From the IMG/VR virus record IMGVR_UViG_2693429635_000010: DNA of 16,972 nucleotides; one strand, 5' to 3'. This document shows, piece by piece, positions 1,038-16,050 of the stretch. Each line of letters opens with the position of its first letter. Position 1 is the first letter of the stretch. The stretch comes from a virus. Taxonomy: Duplodnaviria; Heunggongvirae; Uroviricota; Caudoviricetes. The notes below the pieces were generated by a model, which saw only the letters and a list, made by a program, of their open reading frames with translations, did no database searches and was not told the DNA's origin. The position numbers were made by a program, and so were the translations under genes.

Positions 1038-1040
1038 GTC

Positions 1041-1068
1041 CATAAGAAAGCCCCTCCGGAGAGGGGCT
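1041..1068 (-). terminator. Possible minus-strand terminator hairpin
   Basis: Perfect 8-bp stem AGCCCCTC / GAGGGGCT (1049-1068) with 4-nt loop; on the minus-strand RNA it is followed by UUCUUAU. The U tract is interrupted, so weaker than the others. Confidence 0.3.
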
Positions 1069-1263
1069 GGAGAGTGGCGCTATGTGCCATTGCATGGTGC
1101 CGGGTGCCTCCCGGTGAATTCAGTACCAGCACCTGAATCCGCGATTATCCCATATACCTACTCGCTGATTGCCCCTCCGCACAGGGGGATTCACCATGCC
1201 AGTTTCTTTTAACAAACTCCCCGCAAACCAGACAACAGTCAACCGCCTGAATTGTGAGACATT

Positions 1264-1304: not shown

Positions 1305-1381
1305 TGGCGCGTTGTACTGGATTCGAACCAGTGACCGATTGCTTAGAAGGCAATTGCTCTGTCCGGCTGAGCTAACAACGC
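1305..1381 (-). tRNA. tRNA-Arg (anticodon UCU)
   Basis: 77-nt cloverleaf read by hand on the minus strand: acceptor GCGTTGT/ACAACGC, D arm GCTC...GAGC, anticodon stem ATTGC/GCAAT with loop CTTCTAA, T arm ACTGG-TTCGAAT-CCAGT, discriminator G, encoded CCA. Position matches the argO-type tRNA of lambdoid late regions. Confidence 0.85.
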
Positions 1382-1394
1382 ATGATGCAGATAA

Positions 1395-1471
1395 TGGACC
1401 GCCATCGGGGACTTGAACCCCGCGCAGCCAGCTTCGAAGGCTGGCGCTCTTTCCTGATGAGCTAATGGCGG
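1395..1471 (-). tRNA. tRNA-Arg (anticodon UCG as read from loop CTTCGAA)
   Basis: 77-nt cloverleaf on the minus strand: acceptor CCGCCAT/ATGGCGG (7 bp), D arm GCTC...GAGC, anticodon stem CCAGC/GCTGG, T arm CGGGG-TTCAAGT-CCCCG, discriminator T, encoded CCA. Unusual C1-G72 first pair. Confidence 0.75.
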
Positions 1472-1478
1472 TATGTGA

Positions 1479-1554
1479 TGGTGGCCCTTGCTGGATTTGA
1501 ACCAGCGACCTGGCGATTATGAGTCGCTCGCTCTCACCACTGAGCTAAAGGGCC
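1479..1554 (-). tRNA. tRNA-Ile2 (anticodon CAU, lysidine type; ileZ-like; a plain CAU reading would be tRNA-Met)
   Basis: 76-nt cloverleaf on the minus strand: GGCCCTT acceptor, D arm GCTC-AGTGGTGA-GAGC, anticodon loop CTCATAA, T arm GCTGG-TTCAAAT-CCAGC, AAGGGCC-A-CCA. Closely resembles E. coli ileX/ileY as I recall them. Confidence 0.8.
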
Positions 1555-5647: not shown

Positions 5648-5803
5648 TTACTCCTCAGGTTCGTAAGCTGTGAAGACAGCGACCTCCGTCTGGCCGGTTC
5701 GGATTCGTACCTCGCAGAGGTCTTTCCTCGTTACCAGTGCCGTCACTATGACGGTTAAACAGATGACGATCAGGGCGATTAACATCGCCTTTTGCTGCTT
5801 CAT
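5648..5803 (-). CDS. hok: Hok-family type I toxin (51 aa, HokD-like)
   Basis: MKQQKAMLIALIVICLTVIVTALVTRKDLCEVRIRTGQTEVAVFTAYEPEE, embedded in track ORF 5648..5860; matches the Hok/Gef consensus, and I recall HokD (RelF) of E. coli as identical. Confidence 0.85.
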   Translation of the reverse strand: MKQQKAMLIALIVICLTVIVTALVTRKDLCEVRIRTGQTEVAVFTAYEPEE

Positions 5804-5993
5804 AGCCTGCTTCTCCTTGCCTTTCGGCACGTAAGAGGCTAACCTACATTTGTGAGACATAGATTGGGCCTCAGATTAATGTTAAGCGTCTTGCAGGACG
5901 CGTAATGTTAACTGGGGCTTTTCTCTATCTGCCTTTTGGTGTTCATGCCTGAGACAGATAGCCTCAAGCACCCGCAGCAATTCTACTTAACTC
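5804..5993. promoter_or_regulatory. hok mRNA leader (mok / fold-back region) with the expected antisense Sok RNA gene on the plus strand
   Basis: Established hok/sok architecture. An inverted repeat CTATCTG...CAGATAG is visible near 5925-5958. Sok promoter and ends were not mapped. Confidence 0.4.
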
Positions 5994-6049
5994 TCCTTTT
6001 CCCGCAAACCGTTTTTACCCGATATGGGAATTCCCATATCGTAATGAAT

Positions 6050-6154
6050 TCAGTTCCCTAGTCGATCCATCAAAAACACAACCAGGCAGTAAACGCCCAC
6101 AACAGCAACAACAGCCAGCGCACCTTCCATTGCCAGTGATATATCATCCGACAT
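6050..6154 (-). CDS. Small hydrophobic peptide (34 aa, single predicted TM helix), not in the ORF track
   Basis: Hand translation: GGAGGGAAT-ATG then MSDDISLAMEGALAVVAVVGVYCLVVFLMDRLGN-TGA. A diverged homologue sits at the same relative position beside the second hok locus (11159..11248). Confidence 0.35.
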   Translation of the reverse strand: MSDDISLAMEGALAVVAVVGVYCLVVFLMDRLGN

Positions 6155-6269
6155 ATTCCCTCCTTTGGTGTTAATCCCGGCGAACGTTTTTACCCCCACC
6201 GACAAATAACATATACTAAAAAAGCGATAGCCATAGCAACGCCTGTAATTGCAAATGCTTCAGGCCAGT

Positions 6270-7139
6270 TCATTGGCGCACCTCCTGCGGCGGTTCTGGT
6301 AGCGGCATCCAGTGTGACGGTTTCCACGACGCACCAGGAATTATCCACCCATCATTAGCGTCAGGATGACCCGGGATGTAAGTCGCCCATTTCATTCGCC
6401 AGTCACCTTTCCTGTCAAACTCCACGGCAACAAGAACGGCTGTTTTGGTATCCGGCATTCGCTCACTACAGCTTATCCAACTATCCGGAGTTACCGGATA
6501 GTTGCCCGATAGTGCATTCTGCTCCAGTGATGCTTTTACAAACCACGCTGCCTGAACTATAACGCCATGAATCCAGCGCAAATCAGCATCGCGATCTTTC
6601 TTTTTCATCTTTTCGCCACTTAAGGCCTTGCTTATGTGGCTGCGTACCAGGTCTTCATGTAATTCCTTCGCCTCCTCAATGGTGAAACCACCAGGCAGAA
6701 GAGCCGGAGTTACCGGAGAGCTGGTTGACGCTTCCGGGATTTTCCGAAAATTATTGGTTGACGAATCTTTATTTTCCCGAAAGTTTCCGGACTGAAGCAT
6801 GGCTTCGCGGCAATCGTTCCAGCCTGTAGCGTATGCAGCCGCTTTGCTGCTGCCTTCAACTGGCGCATCCTGCCAATACATTTCTTCCGGCACTATCGGC
6901 GCTGGAGGGGCGGCAAATAGATATCCGCCAAAGTCAGGAAGCTCTCTAATGGCCTGTACGAATTTTTGTTTGCCTACGTCAACCCCTAATGGGTAATGAG
7001 CTATAATCTTTGCCACCGGCTCTGCTTCCAGCGATGCCAGCGCAATCCGTGCCAGTTCCATTTGTTCACCACGGGTAAGCCCGTTTTCAACCGGATTTTT
7101 AATGAACAATTCAATACGTTCTTTGGTAATAGTGGTCAT
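6270..7139 (-). CDS. Hypothetical protein with DUF551-like C-terminal domain
   Basis: 289-aa ORF with RBS AAGGAG (7-nt spacer). C-terminus WISCSERMPD...GDWRMKWATY...WMPLPEPP resembles the DUF551 signature of lambdoid prophage accessory proteins. Confidence 0.5.
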   Translation of the reverse strand: MTTITKERIELFIKNPVENGLTRGEQMELARIALASLEAEPVAKIIAHYPLGVDVGKQKFVQAIRELPDFGGYLFAAPPAPIVPEEMYWQDAPVEGSSKAAAYATGWNDCREAMLQSGNFRENKDSSTNNFRKIPEASTSSPVTPALLPGGFTIEEAKELHEDLVRSHISKALSGEKMKKKDRDADLRWIHGVIVQAAWFVKASLEQNALSGNYPVTPDSWISCSERMPDTKTAVLVAVEFDRKGDWRMKWATYIPGHPDANDGWIIPGASWKPSHWMPLPEPPQEVRQ

Positions 7140-9891: not shown

Positions 9892-10053
9892 TTACCCCCT
9901 TGCTGACTGGTTAGACGGCAGATTACGCATGCTTTTCGGTTCCGGCTCCACCAGTACCCGGGTATTGTGGAATACCGGCATGGATTCACGGCCCGGCTTA
10001 ACGATCACCAGCCCGAGTTCCGGTACCAGAATAGGTCGAAGTAATACCCGCAC
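9892..10053 (-). pseudogene. Truncated 5' fragment of a DUF968-family gene (53 codons), recombination remnant
   Basis: GTG at 10051-10053 opens a frame encoding MRVLLRPILVPELGLVIVKPGRESMPVFHNTRVLVEPEPKSMRNLPS, nearly identical to the N-terminus of the 4154..5200 protein; it then diverges at the repeat boundary (9913/9914) and stops after 7 further codons, just upstream of the P-like gene. Confidence 0.5.
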
Positions 10054-10054
10054 G

Positions 10055-10333
10055 TTACCTCCAGATGCGTTGCTGGAATGTGCGGGACGGACGCGGTGGG
10101 CGTTCGGAGTAAGGAAGCCTGACGGAGATTATCCAGTGACGGTAGTCGAGGCTAAGGGCTTTTTTAACCTCGTATCCGCGCCTGCGGTAACACTGAATTA
10201 TCCATTCAGCCTGCTCTTCAGTGCATGGTGGATGCTGGAACCAGTCCGATTTGAATGCATGAAAACGCCGTCCGCACCTGCTGGCAAAGACGGCAGAATC
10301 ATCAGAATTGTGTAATTTGGTATCGTGCGCCAT
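10055..10333 (-). CDS. Hypothetical nin-region protein (92 aa), paralogue of 5202..5480
   Basis: Internal ATG of track ORF 10055..10444: MAHDTKLHNSDDSAVFASRCGRRFHAFKSDWFQHPPCTEEQAEWIIQCYRRRGYEVKKALSLDYRHWIISVRLPYSERPPRPSRTFQQRIWR. Confidence 0.45.
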   Translation of the reverse strand: MAHDTKLHNSDDSAVFASRCGRRFHAFKSDWFQHPPCTEEQAEWIIQCYRRRGYEVKKALSLDYRHWIISVRLPYSERPPRPSRTFQQRIWR

Positions 10334-10791: not shown

Positions 10792-10947
10792 TTACTCCTC
10801 AGGTTCGTAAGCTGTGAAGACAGCGACCTCCGTCTGGCCGGTTCGGATTCGTACCTCGCAGAGGTCTTTCCTCGTTACCAGTGCCGTCACTATGACGGTT
10901 AAACAGATGACGATCAGGGCGATTAACATCGCCTTTTGCTGCTTCAT
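10792..10947 (-). CDS. hok: Hok-family type I toxin (51 aa), second copy
   Basis: Encodes the same 51-aa protein as 5648..5803, embedded in track ORF 10792..11004. Confidence 0.85.
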   Translation of the reverse strand: MKQQKAMLIALIVICLTVIVTALVTRKDLCEVRIRTGQTEVAVFTAYEPEE

Positions 10948-11136
10948 AGCCTGCTTCTCCTTGCCTTTCGGCACGTAAGAGGCTAACCTAGATTTGCCGT
11001 TCATAGATTGAGCCTCAGATTAATGTTAAGCGTCTTGCAGGACGCGTAATGTTAACTGGGGCTTTTCTCTATCTGCCGTTGGTGTTCATGCCTGAGACAG
11101 ATAGCCTCAAGCACCCGCAGCCATTCTACTTAACTC
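10948..11136. promoter_or_regulatory. hok mRNA leader / expected antisense Sok region (second copy)
   Basis: Near-identical to 5804..5993. Confidence 0.4.
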
Positions 11137-11158
11137 CCGTCACCTCGCCAATATGAAA

Positions 11159-11248
11159 TCAGTCAGAAAGGCGATCCATAAGAACAACAGCAAGGCAATA
11201 AATTGCCATTACAGCAGCAATAGCCAGCGCACATTTGAGAACCAGCAC
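11159..11248 (-). CDS. Small hydrophobic peptide (29 aa), homologue of 6050..6154, not in the ORF track
   Basis: AGGAGG then GTG (5-nt spacer): (M)LVLKCALAIAAVMAIYCLAVVLMDRLSD. Shares the A-rich hydrophobic core and LMDRL C-terminal motif with the copy-A peptide; lies in a different frame from the Cys-rich track ORF 11163..11471. Confidence 0.3.
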   Translation of the reverse strand: MLVLKCALAIAAVMAIYCLAVVLMDRLSD

Positions 11249-11544
11249 CACAACCTCCTGTATTGGACGTACACCAGTCCTGATAAATATGAGGCTGTCT
11301 CGTCAGTGATTCAATACAACTATTGGGTATAGTTTCTGTGATTTTGTTCTGTAGAAATGGAACACAACAACCAGTCACCACCAGCACTTCTTTAAATACG
11401 CCAAGTCCGACGCAAGCTAACCTTCTAGGCCGCTTTGAGCGAAGAGCGGACGCTCGCATCTGTCCCAACACACTGAGGGCTTCACGAACACCTAGGTGTA
11501 CTCGTCAACTGGGAAAAAGTCAGATTATCTGCGTAAGTTTCAGC

Positions 11545-11572
11545 GTAAAAATTGGGCACTATAAAAGTGCCC
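11545..11572 (-). terminator. Rho-independent terminator 3' of the large NTPase gene
   Basis: Minus-strand RNA GGGCAC-UUUUAUA-GUGCCC (6-bp stem) followed by AAUUUUUA, starting ~25 nt after the TAG stop at 11596-11598. Confidence 0.5.
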
Positions 11573-11595
11573 AAACTGTAGAAAAATACATAATG

Positions 11596-14500
11596 CTATG
11601 TATCTGAGCCAAACATAGAGCGCCGCCTTGTTATTTTATAATAAGTGGGATTTTCATTATCCACCTCAAAATCAGAGAAGAAGTGGTTATCTCTTAATGC
11701 TGTTAATAAACTTTGATTAGTTGAATCAACTTCAATTTTAGGTTTGCCTCGCCCCAAAATTTTACTGAACTCCGATAAACCAAGCAGATCAAGATACTCT
11801 TTGCAAGTCGTCTTACTCAAATCCTTACCCGGCAACAAAGCGATTAGCAGTGCTATTTTATTCTGCATATTCAGTCCCTCTGCGACAAACAGGTTTTTTA
11901 GTAACGGTTCAGAAACATCATTAGGACTTGCTATCAATGCTGATATATCCTGTATTGCTCGACTCAAGATGAGCGACTGAGTAGAGGTTCCCCAAGTTTT
12001 ATAAGATGACGTCAAGATTAGAAGTTCATCTGGTTTAAAATTATTTTCTAAAATATAGTCATTAACGACCTGAGAGTAATTCTTACTATAAATAGCCAAC
12101 GGAGTTTTAACAAACTCGAGTAGCTTAACTTTCAAATCATCATCAACTTTCCAAGAAAGTATTGATATAGCCTCATCCAAAATAAAGTTATCAATCGTCA
12201 TTAATTCAACGTATGCCCTGATATTCTTATGAATATAATAGGAAAGTTGCTCTGAATAGTTATCTCGTATGAAATTAAGTGGCGCAACATTCATACGAAT
12301 AATATTTTTATCCACTAATATTTTGAACTTATCACTCGCGATATCACTAGCGCTAAAGGATGTTTTACAAATAATATTTAGTGAGCAAATTAATTTTTCA
12401 TATTTATCATTTGATAAATCATTACAGATAACAATCGATTTAAATAATTTACCTTTAAGCTCGTTATCAATATTAATATTTTGAAAATTCAGGTCTACAT
12501 CAGTTCTATTGATAAATTCGATAAGTGAGTCATCCAGTCCATCAACATGTTCAAAATAAGAGACAATATTTTCCTCAGAGCACACTGCTCTATCTTTATC
12601 CAACAAAGATGACCATAAAGATTCGCTCTCAACCTCACTCAGAGATGTCACGAAAGTTTGCAAAGCGTTTATATACTGGCCTTTTTGTTCATCAGATATT
12701 CCCTCATTATTAAGAACGGATAAAACAATGGATTCATCATCCACGATTGAACCATCACAACTAGATAAAACCATATCCAGATAGTCCCTAATATGGTTAT
12801 TAACATAACTAGCCAAGGGAGAATCAGGTTGTGACATCACTAGTGTATAGTTCTTATGGCGAATATCATCTTCACTATTAAGCGTGTAAACCTTACTCAG
12901 CATTAAGGTCAGGTTGGAAAAATTAATATCATAAAGTGAATGCTGGTAAACCGCATCAAAGAGTACTTTATTTGCGTTTTCAAATTTAATACTGACAAAA
13001 GAGACGTTAAGCAACTTAAAACCACTAATTAATTTGTCAACCTTTGGTTCTGATATTGCTAAATAACCTGCCGAATCAGAGATGTAATCAGTCAGACAAT
13101 CATCAATATTAATGGCCTCGATGGCGTCATTGGCAGAATAATAAAACGTGCCTATAGAGTAGAGTTTAACCCAATCAGCAGAAAATTCACTCTCTGTCAG
13201 CGCATAAGAAAAAAACTCAGGCCACTGTGTATTTAATCGATTAATGAAGACAGGCTGAGCCCTCTCAGTTTCAAAGTAACCACGAATAAACTCAACTCTT
13301 CTATCTTTTCTTAGTTGTTTGAATAAACGTTTTATTAAGTTTACCAGGGCTGGCGTTTGAAGCAGATAAGCTAATAAATCAAAATTAAGCGCCTCTTCCT
13401 GTTCAAAATCCACTTCTCGAAGGCGGGCAACGACCAGCTTGGGGTTCTTGAGTTGATAAGTGAACTCTTTGCCTTTTTGATCGGTAATGCTGCGTAAAAA
13501 CATCTTATCAATTCGACTCAGGCTATTTTCATAAAAATAGGTCATATAGTCGGTATAGGTTTCATCAATATAACCATCACGAATAAGGTATTTAAGCAAG
13601 TCAAAATACTCACTGCTTTTTATTTCATTAAAGTCTCTTTCCTCTCCAATTTCATTGGTATAGGTGAGTTTAAATATTTCATCAATGTTTTCTCTAGTTA
13701 TTACTTCTTTAAGTCTTTTGTTTCTAGAATCAACCAAACTTTCTCTTGATCTTGATATAAGCTCATTAATTTCTTCTATTTTACCATTAAATTTATTTTC
13801 AACACTTTCTTTTCTAGCCGCCCTTCTCTTTGCTATATCAGCTTTCTCAGCCTGATTATAGTGAGGATGATTATTATATCTAGATAATTCCTTATCGTAT
13901 ATAGCATCAACCTCCTGACTAGAGTTGAGTATTTCATCATTGATTGCCTCAATCTCTTTTTTTCTATCTCTAATATCTTTTTCTATTTTCTTTATTTCTT
14001 CAATAATAAGGTTGTCTTTTTCACTAAATATGGTATAAACCATACCTTGATTAAGTTGCAACTCACTAAAATCTCTTGGGAAAATATTCTTATAGGCAAT
14101 AATGGCCAACATTTTATTACAGTCAAGTTCTGTCGTGTTTAATTTGTTATAATAAATTTGAAATTCGTTATAAATATTCTTCAATATTCTCATATCATCA
14201 ATATATAAAGACATCCCTTGTAGAAATCTTTCATTGAACAACTTGAGAATACCACCACCATCAAAATGTGTGATAAACTGATCGTAAGAGTTAGAACTAT
14301 CAACAACAGGAATAACTGGAATGATATAATCAAAGAATTTGGTTCTATCCTTCGAAATGAAGATATCATCACGAAGCAAGTAAATAAAACGTAACGTCGA
14401 TTTCTTGTGCCCTGCTGTGTCCCGTTGAATATTAACCAGTCTGTTAACCTCATGAAGACGTTCAAAGATGTTATTACTATTAAAACGGTCCATGTCTTCA

Positions 14501-15228
14501 AAAACAATGGCATCAGCATCAACGTTCTCGAAAAGGTACAATACTTCATTTAAATATCTATCGAAATAAGACTCGTTACTTTCTTCAAAAATCTCTATTT
14601 CATTACCCTGTAAATTTATTTTCTTAAGAACATTACGATTCTTTTGGGTTTTTATTAACTTGTAAATGAAAATACAAGATAGGATAGTACATATAAACCC
14701 ACTAATTAAAAGCGTATCGTATTTAGTTGATAATGTAAGTAGTGTCTTTATATTACCTTCAGATAAAAGTGAAACAAACTTTTCCCACTTATTAAATAGC
14801 GTGATATGTAGTATCATAGCGATAAATAACACCGTAAAGATGGTGTTTATCACAATGTTGTTAGTTTTTATTTTTTTCTTTACTTTAAAATGTGTCTGGG
14901 GAATATCATCAGCATTAATTTGGTGAATTAACTGGTTAAGAACTTTACCTTCTAACGCGGTTTCATTTATATCTTTACTTGGTTCATTAGTTTCAGCTTC
15001 CTCAATCGATCTGAAATGAGCAAGTGAGATATGAACAAACTTTATATTTGAATGACTTTTCTTATAGGATTCGATAAGACTACTTTTTCCTGCGCTATAT
15101 TGCCCTGATATCGCAACATTTTTTAGATCGTTATTGGCAAAAACAAAATCTATCGCATTTTTATATACACCCAGCTCAACATCGCTGAACGGCGTTAACT
15201 TTTGAAATTTATAGCTATCATCACTCAT
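11596..15228 (-). CDS. Large KAP-type P-loop NTPase (1210 aa): Walker A, two hydrophobic helices, Walker B, coiled-coil region and ~700-aa C-terminal region of unknown function; candidate defence/abortive-infection protein
   Basis: Single uninterrupted 3.6-kb ORF, ATG at 15226-15228 with AAGGGA RBS. Walker A SGQYSAGKSS (aa 41-50); hydrophobic helices NIVINTIFTVLFIAMILHITLF (~aa 124-145) and LLISGFICTILSCIFIYKLI (~aa 171-192); Walker-B-like DAIVFEDMD (~aa 238-246); K/E-rich coiled-coil-like stretch ~aa 400-510. Gene body is visibly AT-rich relative to the flanks. Confidence 0.7.
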   Translation of the reverse strand: MSDDSYKFQKLTPFSDVELGVYKNAIDFVFANNDLKNVAISGQYSAGKSSLIESYKKSHSNIKFVHISLAHFRSIEEAETNEPSKDINETALEGKVLNQLIHQINADDIPQTHFKVKKKIKTNNIVINTIFTVLFIAMILHITLFNKWEKFVSLLSEGNIKTLLTLSTKYDTLLISGFICTILSCIFIYKLIKTQKNRNVLKKINLQGNEIEIFEESNESYFDRYLNEVLYLFENVDADAIVFEDMDRFNSNNIFERLHEVNRLVNIQRDTAGHKKSTLRFIYLLRDDIFISKDRTKFFDYIIPVIPVVDSSNSYDQFITHFDGGGILKLFNERFLQGMSLYIDDMRILKNIYNEFQIYYNKLNTTELDCNKMLAIIAYKNIFPRDFSELQLNQGMVYTIFSEKDNLIIEEIKKIEKDIRDRKKEIEAINDEILNSSQEVDAIYDKELSRYNNHPHYNQAEKADIAKRRAARKESVENKFNGKIEEINELISRSRESLVDSRNKRLKEVITRENIDEIFKLTYTNEIGEERDFNEIKSSEYFDLLKYLIRDGYIDETYTDYMTYFYENSLSRIDKMFLRSITDQKGKEFTYQLKNPKLVVARLREVDFEQEEALNFDLLAYLLQTPALVNLIKRLFKQLRKDRRVEFIRGYFETERAQPVFINRLNTQWPEFFSYALTESEFSADWVKLYSIGTFYYSANDAIEAINIDDCLTDYISDSAGYLAISEPKVDKLISGFKLLNVSFVSIKFENANKVLFDAVYQHSLYDINFSNLTLMLSKVYTLNSEDDIRHKNYTLVMSQPDSPLASYVNNHIRDYLDMVLSSCDGSIVDDESIVLSVLNNEGISDEQKGQYINALQTFVTSLSEVESESLWSSLLDKDRAVCSEENIVSYFEHVDGLDDSLIEFINRTDVDLNFQNINIDNELKGKLFKSIVICNDLSNDKYEKLICSLNIICKTSFSASDIASDKFKILVDKNIIRMNVAPLNFIRDNYSEQLSYYIHKNIRAYVELMTIDNFILDEAISILSWKVDDDLKVKLLEFVKTPLAIYSKNYSQVVNDYILENNFKPDELLILTSSYKTWGTSTQSLILSRAIQDISALIASPNDVSEPLLKNLFVAEGLNMQNKIALLIALLPGKDLSKTTCKEYLDLLGLSEFSKILGRGKPKIEVDSTNQSLLTALRDNHFFSDFEVDNENPTYYKITRRRSMFGSDT

Positions 15229-15627: not shown

Positions 15628-16050
15628 TCACTTTAATAAATACCGAACATTCCCCTGATAAAACGACAATATGCGCTGCATAACTTCGCTTTTACGACAC
15701 TCAGTACAAATTATATTATGATGCCTGTCGTAACGACGTATTTCTCCATCAGGTAATGACCAGATAAGGTCCGGATCAACCGCAGATGGTTTCTTCAGCT
15801 TTGCCCTTGAGAGCTTTTTACGGGCATTTTGCCAGTCCTTACGCGCCTGTTCAGACGGGAATAACCCGTAACCAGAATTGTATACATCACCGCTGGCAAC
15901 CAGCTCTCTCGCGAGAACGCTCATCAGATATCTTGTCGCACCTGTCTTGACTTCCAGTTGTCGTAACGTCTCACGCCCACTCTGGCGTACGAGTTCAACA
16001 ACCTGCCCTTTAATTTTTTCTCGCTCTTCTTGTGTAAATACTTTTGCCAC
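15628..16050 (-). CDS. Hypothetical protein (140 aa), paralogue of 7984..8406
   Basis: GTG start with AGGAGG 4-5 nt upstream: MAKVFTQEEREKIKGQVVELVRQSGRETLRQLEVKTGATRYLMSVLARELVASGDVY... Confidence 0.55.
   Translation of the reverse strand: MAKVFTQEEREKIKGQVVELVRQSGRETLRQLEVKTGATRYLMSVLARELVASGDVYNSGYGLFPSEQARKDWQNARKKLSRAKLKKPSAVDPDLIWSLPDGEIRRYDRHHNIICTECRKSEVMQRILSFYQGNVRYLLK

Follow-up and report, generated by a model that had tools for sequence, protein, structure and literature searches.

Small hydrophobic peptide genes under purifying selection beside hok/sok in lambdoid prophages of Escherichia and Shigella

A stretch of 16,972 nt from a virus of the Caudoviricetes (IMG/VR record IMGVR_UViG_2693429635_000010), referred to below as the window, carries two copies of hok/sok, and a small hydrophobic peptide gene is located just outside each of them. 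The two genes are here named pepA and pepB, and pep stands for their family; pep27 is a separate gene described further below. pepA and pepB are genuine coding genes on which purifying selection of moderate strength acts, and the family is restricted to lambdoid prophages of Escherichia and Shigella. It is probable that these selected genes encode a one-helix inner-membrane peptide, most likely non-lethal, constitutively made and moron-like, which would accompany the hok/sok cassette at the border of a hotspot for cargo (defence) genes. The genes themselves are not new; what is new is the family-level picture. The two open reading frames (ORFs), their positions and their signals had been pointed out in an earlier sequence-only reading of the window, and this observation is confirmed.

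pepA (6050..6154, minus strand) consists of 34 codons starting with ATG, and translation of 6050-6154(-) gives MSDDISLAMEGALAVVAVVGVYCLVVFLMDRLGN followed by a stop. A Shine-Dalgarno (SD) site, GGAGG (6159..6163, minus strand), is placed 4 nt 5' of the ATG. pepB (11159..11248, minus strand) consists of 29 codons, and its initiation codon is GTG rather than ATG; translation of 11159-11248(-) gives (GTG)LVLKCALAIAAVMAIYCLAVVLMDRLSD and then a stop, so that the peptide reads (M)LVLKCALAIAAVMAIYCLAVVLMDRLSD. The SD site of pepB, AGGAGG (11254..11259, minus strand), lies 5 nt 5' of the GTG, and such a site (GGAGG or AGGAGG, 4–6 nt 5' of the start) is present in every family type. The GTG at 11248 is invariant. 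One codon further upstream, at 11251, an in-frame GTG is replaced by GTC or GTT in many copies; since it is not conserved, 11248 is the pepB start. The start is GTG or ATG at one aligned codon in the B, HannyBb, P0077, P0076 and pINV types, the copy on pWR100 (the Shigella virulence plasmid, pINV) having ATG at the pepB GTG codon. The descriptions of a 34-codon ORF with a GGAGG site beside hok/sok copy A and of a 29-codon homologue with an AGGAGG site beside copy B are thus borne out by translation and by direct reading of the sequence. Both genes had been said to be missed by the ORF track. They are indeed missing from an ORF list with a limit of ≥60 aa (a list with a minimum of 20 aa contains both); RefSeq, GenBank and a ribosome-profiling (RIBOseq) study of 2017, however, already have them.

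The peptides of pepA and pepB share 16 invariant columns (53% identity), and the pep genes are ~70% identical between copies A and B. Their DNA can be aligned from approximately the seventh pepA codon until a few bases beyond the stop, and a tblastn search with one peptide against the other copy within the window gives E = 3e-6. The family types are A (34 aa), B (29 aa), B-strain/HannyBb (29 aa), P0077 (30 aa), P0076 (31 aa, counted from the conserved GTG) and Shigella pINV (29 aa). With lengths of 29, 30, 31 and 34 codons, every length difference is a multiple of three nucleotides and the indels are in frame. The C-terminal tail of the peptides follows the pattern ..YCL..V.LMDRLSD. An exhaustive profile search of 1.84 billion representative proteins produced 27 matches, each of which contains this peptide, either alone or within longer mis-called ORFs. 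When one genome per species was scanned, the family was found only in Escherichia, Shigella and mis-binned contigs of metagenome-assembled genomes, and the search with a 51-aa upstream-extended ORF as query returned only close E. coli relatives. Scans of both peptides against Pfam, NCBIfam, PHROGs and PADLOC assigned no family; a profile search of the Protein Data Bank (PDB) with the peptide gave noise only (E = 1), and a degenerate DNA pattern for a more distant P0083-like type had no match in IMG/VR.

Selection on the protein was examined within and between the types. For the within-type test, distinct haplotype segments were taken from IMG/VR and other sources (65 of type B, 48 of type A). 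In the pep frame the B-type segments contain 19 synonymous and 16 nonsynonymous variants, with a ratio of nonsynonymous to synonymous polymorphism (pN/pS) of 0.29 (binomial p = 3e-4); for the A-type segments the numbers are 19 and 27, with pN/pS 0.48 (p = 0.013). The two other same-strand frames give pN/pS of 0.69–1.8. The antisense frame which shares its third positions with the pep frame shows a signal too (0.38, p = 0.005), but it is closed across the region, and the synonymous excess is confined to the pep frame among the open frames. Over the 180 nt upstream of pepB the ratio is ~1.0 and there is no periodicity (101, 109 and 105 variants by codon position). Between the types, the Nei-Gojobori ratio of nonsynonymous to synonymous substitution rates (dN/dS) is 0.22–0.60 for all ten pairs of five family types, and the variable columns are distributed over codon positions 1, 2 and 3 as 14, 7 and 19. 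The replacements are mainly conservative swaps among V, I, A, L and M. The synonymous distance dS reaches ~1.7 among the five diverged types, which nonetheless retain their reading frame, start, SD site and C-terminal motif. The suggestion that a kept helix and C-terminus in diverged DNA betray selection on the protein therefore holds: the comparison of synonymous with nonsynonymous changes gave ratios below 1 both between and within types, with a frame-specific signal and a conserved SD site and start.

AlphaFold2 (AF2) predicts a single continuous helix over residues 2–33 with a predicted local distance difference test score (pLDDT) of 90, and the best 19-residue Kyte-Doolittle (KD) window has a mean of 2.7. 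Judging from this model, the peptide is essentially one hydrophobic α-helix with a short charged C-terminal tail and should enter the inner membrane. It resembles the class of KdpF, CydX, AcrZ, MgtS and MgrB (PMC10903887) in size, in its one transmembrane helix and in its strong SD site. Members of this class are often overlooked by gene callers and, where their action is known, bind larger membrane proteins. They are, however, core-genome genes with known partners, whereas pep is prophage-borne and found in Escherichia and Shigella only.

Translation of the type A gene is supported by published ribosome footprints, obtained from an uninduced lysogen of E. coli O157:H7 Sakai and concerning this type only. 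Candidate XECs145 of Huecker et al. 2017, PLoS One (PMC5597208, S2 and S8 tables; Sakai positions 1550761-1550922) has a sequence that ends in the type A peptide. In lysogeny broth (LB) its transcriptome and translatome values were 79.1 and 346.1 reads per kilobase per million (RPKM), i.e. a ribosomal coverage value (RCV, the ratio of translatome to transcriptome RPKM) of 4.35, with a coverage of 0.99; in brain-heart infusion (BHI) the RCV was 1.14 (PMC5597208). The authors classed it as 'real' and predicted an inner-membrane location, and it is one line among 465 candidates (PMC5597208). XECs145 and pepA are the same gene; in XECs145 the 34-aa sequence is present as its Sakai allele (V16I), within a 54-aa ORF whose start was called further upstream. 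That study describes neither the hok connection nor the B-type homologues nor any analysis of selection.

Several sequence records hold members of the family as well. pepA is identical to RefSeq WP_001278454.1, a 'hypothetical protein' annotated by the NCBI Prokaryotic Genome Annotation Pipeline (PGAP) at the corresponding position in strain 2013C-4187, and its cluster has been seen on ~1000 contigs. A 381-nt query spanning pepB has a match in 2361 of 5426 complete E. coli genomes (in 1632 of them over ≥80% of the query), and none of 30 sampled matches has an annotation at the peptide. GenBank contains B-type entries, namely a 29-aa 'conserved hypothetical protein' in the E. coli B strains REL606 and BL21 (ACT39199.1, ACT43394.1) and 'membrane protein' entries, and UniRef A0A0M1UIT1 is the pINV-type peptide. 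The REL606/BL21 and pINV entries belong to one family with pepB as allelic types (79% identity, same start position, 29 codons). In phage records the pep locus is blank or the opposite strand is called. A full-text literature search with the peptide sequences and accessions had no match in main texts and a match in a supplement only.

The transcription of pep appears to differ between the types. A putative σ70 promoter of pepB is located at 11286..11314 on the minus strand (-35 TTGAAT at 11314-11309, 17-nt spacer, -10 CATATT at 11291-11286), and copies of the B, pINV, P0076 and HannyBb/QueH types have the motif TTGA(A/G)(T/G)-17 nt-CATATT upstream, at −66 to −73 relative to the start codon. 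Its hexamers are conserved between the B type and four other locus types, while the spacers are completely different. B-type copies would thus be transcribed from a σ70 promoter of their own (TTGAAT-17-CATATT) with a leader of ~30 nt, and the position of this promoter after the cargo terminator suggests autonomous, lysogen-compatible expression. Where DUF977 or ORF6N directly abuts pep the motif is absent, so that pep must be co-transcribed there with the upstream gene. In type A no promoter-like site follows DUF551 and pep27, and A-type copies are probably the last gene of a DUF551-pep27-pepA string. No terminator was found between pep and the hok promoter; read-through is therefore probable, and pep transcripts would continue into the hok/sok cassette. 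The modelled pepB mRNA has no more structure than shuffled sequence (z = -0.22).

The hok repeats of the window comprise 5556-5855/10700-10999 (97% identity) and 5936-6008/11079-11151 (89%). Copy A contains mok/hok at 5648..5860 on the minus strand (hok 5648-5803), the hok leader/sok at 5798-5973 (Rfam RF01794) and the hokA promoter at ~5980-6008. Copy B contains mok/hok at 10792..11004 on the minus strand (hok 10792-10947), the hok leader/sok at 10942-11116 (Rfam) and the hokB promoter at 11123-11151, which a consensus scan reads as TTGGCG-17-TAGAAT (11151-11123, with the -35 hexamer TTGGCG at 11151-11146). Both pep genes lie just outside the repeat copies and outside the hok mRNA; they immediately precede the hok promoter and share the (minus) strand of hok. 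The stop of pepB is 7 nt before the hokB -35 hexamer, and that of pepA ~41 nt before the hokA -35 hexamer. In every pep locus with sufficient flanking sequence hok is found 211–248 nt downstream; the four exceptions to this adjacency are one hok deletion, two insertions of insertion sequences (IS) and one Shigella rearrangement. The divergent members P0077 and P0076 are likewise placed directly upstream of HOK_GEF genes.

The reverse relation is looser. Among 116 hok loci gathered by a DNA pattern of the hok promoter and leader, and thus blindly with respect to pep, 52 have an intact pep; in 7 only the tail after the pep stop codon is left, and 25 have an unrelated 27-codon peptide in place of pep. 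Phage 933W (hokW) has no pep. The frequent absence or truncation of pep beside hok means that it is dispensable for hok/sok and for the phage. The statement that the peptide gene lies beside each hok locus is accordingly true of this window and not of comparable loci in general: pep is a frequent neighbour of hok, yet it is not required by hok.

Several observations weigh against the reading of pep as a selected, moron-like membrane peptide that travels with hok/sok. In the sample of 116 hok loci, 61 have no detectable pep, at least 16 retain only its last 7 codons, beside a QueH cargo gene, after cargo insertion, and 3 carry other truncated stumps. Between the two copies in the window, identity is 97% for the hok cores and ~70% for the pep genes, which shows that pep and hok were not co-inherited as one unit and that the boundary between them is a mosaic junction. 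The family is very narrow in range (Escherichia/Shigella only). With ~25–30 codons each single dN/dS test is weak, and several pairwise bootstraps are non-significant; diversity within each type is low, and many of the nonsynonymous variants are singletons. The RIBOseq call refers to the longer ORF of 54 aa, and Sakai has several near-identical copies, which makes the read assignment uncertain. Finally, the proposed pepB promoter fits only 8 of 12 consensus positions and is not picked up by a consensus scan.

A different role for the peptide would be that of a dedicated partner of Hok, i.e. a third part of the prophage hok/sok cassette which, for example, modulates the insertion or oligomerisation of Hok or confers partial immunity. 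In its favour, pep always adjoins hok in the same orientation, the B-type stop comes within 7 nt of the hok -35 hexamer, and co-transcription is likely as there is no intervening terminator. In addition, the homology between prophage backbones begins 20–190 nt upstream of pep, so that pep and hok move together past the cargo slot. Such a partnership is nevertheless unlikely. About half of the comparable hok loci have no pep and others have a truncated one; hokW/sokW of the Sakai prophage Sp5, which is homologous to the 933W locus and is without pep, is a functional toxin-antitoxin system (PMC8621323). Moreover, pep is intact on pINV despite the deletion of hok, and the divergence of pep is uncoupled from that of hok.

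A broader version of this idea, which is more doubtful still, is that hok/sok in many lambdoid prophages forms a three-part module. Its constitutive transmembrane peptide (pepA/B, or pep27 in 933W-type loci) might tune Hok in the membrane, setting for example the threshold for pore formation in prophage induction or abortive infection, or else its transcription into the hok promoter might set the level of hok mRNA. Like the Hok/Gef type I toxins (PF01848), pep is a small hydrophobic membrane peptide of lambdoid prophages, the two being adjacent and co-oriented, and both have a Cys inside the hydrophobic helix. There is, however, no detectable homology and no Pfam match at E ≤ 0.1; pep is ~20 residues shorter, ends 5 residues past its helix and has no periplasmic C-terminal domain. 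Nor does it have an overlapping frame like mok or an mRNA folded in the fbi/tac manner, and no antisense RNA comparable to Sok was found. A derivation of pep as a truncated Hok paralogue was considered and rejected, the match of 33% over 21 residues being non-significant (E = 0.39).

The sequence-only reading had suggested that the peptide is possibly a second type I toxin, which would have an RNA antitoxin of its own. The known toxins TisB, DinQ, ZorO, Ibs and Ldr have 19–35 residues, one transmembrane helix and charged ends, and pep recalls TisB, DinQ, ZorO and the Ldr-type toxins by its size, its single hydrophobic helix and its charged tail. It also adjoins a known type I system, and in copy A a weak antisense promoter-like site is seen at 6130-6157 on the plus strand. 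This site is not conserved in copy B, no antisense RNA was found for pep, and Rfam finds sok (RF01794) only in this region. pep has no sequence similarity to the toxins named; unlike them, it has no known cognate small RNA and no structured leader that hides the SD site, and it is translated in growing cells. An unstructured mRNA, a strong, consensus-like SD site and a high ribosome occupancy in healthy cells, the last being hard to square with a lethal peptide, argue against a type I toxin and favour a benign peptide. A toxin with its own antitoxin is thus less likely than a moron-like membrane peptide and is, on the whole, improbable. The wider proposal of a small membrane peptide stands for its membrane part, which agrees with the AF2 single helix, the selection signal and the RIBOseq data for type A; its toxin part is not supported.

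Still less probable is that the ORF acts in cis, either as an upstream ORF (uORF) whose translation controls read-through into hok or as a DNA or RNA part of the upstream regulatory region of hok. The end of the ORF 7 nt from the hok -35 hexamer would fit such a role, all the more as pep and the unrelated pep27 share that spacing, and the surrounding 190 nt are conserved too, though non-coding. Nonetheless, the variation in pep is concentrated at synonymous third positions and its amino-acid changes are conservative, which is the opposite of a constraint at the DNA or RNA level; pep is kept on pINV without hok, and no attenuator-like alternative structures were found. That the ORFs are chance, decaying, functionless frames, young and hitch-hiking with hok, would agree with their narrow taxonomic range, frequent loss or truncation and very short length, but this most improbable explanation is largely refuted by the frame-specific selection signal. 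Against it also speak the persistence of frame, start, SD site and C-terminal motif in five diverged types at dS up to ~1.7, the reported ribosome footprints and the unbiased sample, in which 52 of the 55 loci with tblastn-detectable pep homology are intact.

A Cys-rich ORF of 102 aa is read at 11163..11471 on the minus strand and had been regarded as a probable artefact of the region read in the wrong frame. This is supported: the ORF is an artefact, a non-coding conserved leader/promoter region translated in a frame other than that of pepB. Where its 3' end overlaps the pepB gene, its frame shows no constraint (pN/pS 1.25), and its 5' part falls within a conserved region of 190 nt without codon periodicity. 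Predicted ORFs of related loci follow the pepB frame through the sequence that precedes pepB, whereas the window's 102-aa ORF uses another frame for the homologous stretch, so that the reading frame is not conserved there. A collection of 15 billion proteins does not contain the exact 102-aa sequence. B-type loci conserve the region itself (11252-11450(-), the ~190 nt before pepB), and its homology stops abruptly at about -190, at the cargo boundary. On the plus strand a 59-aa ORF (11153..11332), annotated in phage HannyBb, was considered as a real gene and rejected; the variation falls at its first codon positions and its ratio of 0.66 is non-significant.

A further micro-peptide gene, pep27, is found near copy A (6190..6273, minus strand). 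It encodes a 27-codon hydrophobic peptide, MNWPEAFAITGVAMAIAFLVYVICRWG, which is unrelated to those of pepA and pepB. The gene has GGAGG as its SD site, and its ATG and the TGA that ends the DUF551 gene overlap as ATGA. A pep27 homologue adjoins the hok promoter in 933W-type loci, where its end is 7 nt from the hok -35 hexamer, and accounts for the 25 loci of the 116 mentioned above. The between-type dN/dS of pep27 is 0.07–0.13 (bootstrap P ≤ 0.002) and is decisive here, the within-type polymorphism test being uninformative. PGAP gives pep27 no annotation in the record examined, and the Shigella version forms a fusion with a DUF551 protein of 121 aa.

A perfect 22-bp palindrome, CGATATGGGAATTCCCATATCG (6020..6041), occupies part of the interval from the stop of pepA to the -35 hexamer of hokA and lies 12 nt before this hexamer. 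It is present also before hok promoters without pepA, and in a variant, CCGATGCGGGACTTCCCACATCGG, the pairing is kept through changes in both arms. The lack of a U-tract sets it apart from canonical terminators; it may serve as an operator or form an RNA hairpin. pepA and the palindrome make up a 175-nt module bracketed by an 11-nt direct repeat, CGTTTTTACCC (6010..6020 and 6185-6195), of which 933W-type loci have a single copy. The type A arrangement thus equals the 933W-type arrangement plus the 175-nt module, which suggests either an insertion of the pepA module or its deletion by recombination between the repeats.

The Shigella copy of pep is part of a pep-hok relic. On pWR100 (NZ_CP037924.1, ~90911-91012) this relic lies ~300 nt before icsP; it comprises a pep of 29 codons, intact with its ATG and a putative promoter, and a truncated hok leader, and hok is gone; the hok neighbour, which pepB has, is lost here. 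This match of 79% identity is carried by 135 plasmid records (the virulence plasmid pINV of Shigella and enteroinvasive E. coli), of which the pWR100 copy was examined. The copy beside icsP may merit the attention of those who study that promoter region.

The lambdoid-prophage replication and nin-type modules of the window are encoded on its minus strand. In transcriptional order come first DUF977 (15628-16050), a YobI/Tmn NTPase, pepB, hok/sok copy B, a truncated DUF968 fragment and a lambda-P-like gene. These are followed by DUF1627, DUF977, further ORFs, DUF551 (6270-7139), pepA, hok/sok copy A, DUF968, RusA, an antiterminator Q-like gene, more ORFs and a DNA methylase. The NTPase (11596..15228, minus strand, 1210 aa) is a YobI-like P-loop NTPase matching the Tmn anti-phage defence protein (Pfam E = 8e-123; PADLOC Tmn E = 7e-68), and a strong intrinsic terminator follows its gene at 11552-11574. 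The slot between DUF977 and pep-hok is variable; it holds Tmn here and QueH, HigBA, ORF6N or nothing in other E. coli prophages. With DUF977 and hok each present twice, the window is a head-to-tail composite of two prophage replication/nin modules, and the truncated DUF968 fragment (9914-10213) abuts the lambda-P-like gene. No complete E. coli genome of the collection has the segment 5000-12000 as a contiguous stretch, the best coverage being 83%. The small RNA STnc100 (Rfam RF02076, 138 bits) and three tRNA genes are found at 1038-1228(-) and 1308-1554(-), downstream of the Q/methylase region.

The analysis provides a supported annotation for a gene that PGAP leaves unannotated (the pepB locus) and removes the spurious 102-aa ORF. 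It also shows that two unrelated micro-peptide genes repeatedly share one spot before prophage hok promoters, at the edge of a defence hotspot (Tmn, HigBA, QueH). If either peptide interacts with Hok or with host membrane proteins, it would be an added component for one of the oldest model toxin-antitoxin systems; if there is no such interaction, it would be another prophage small membrane protein of the moron type.

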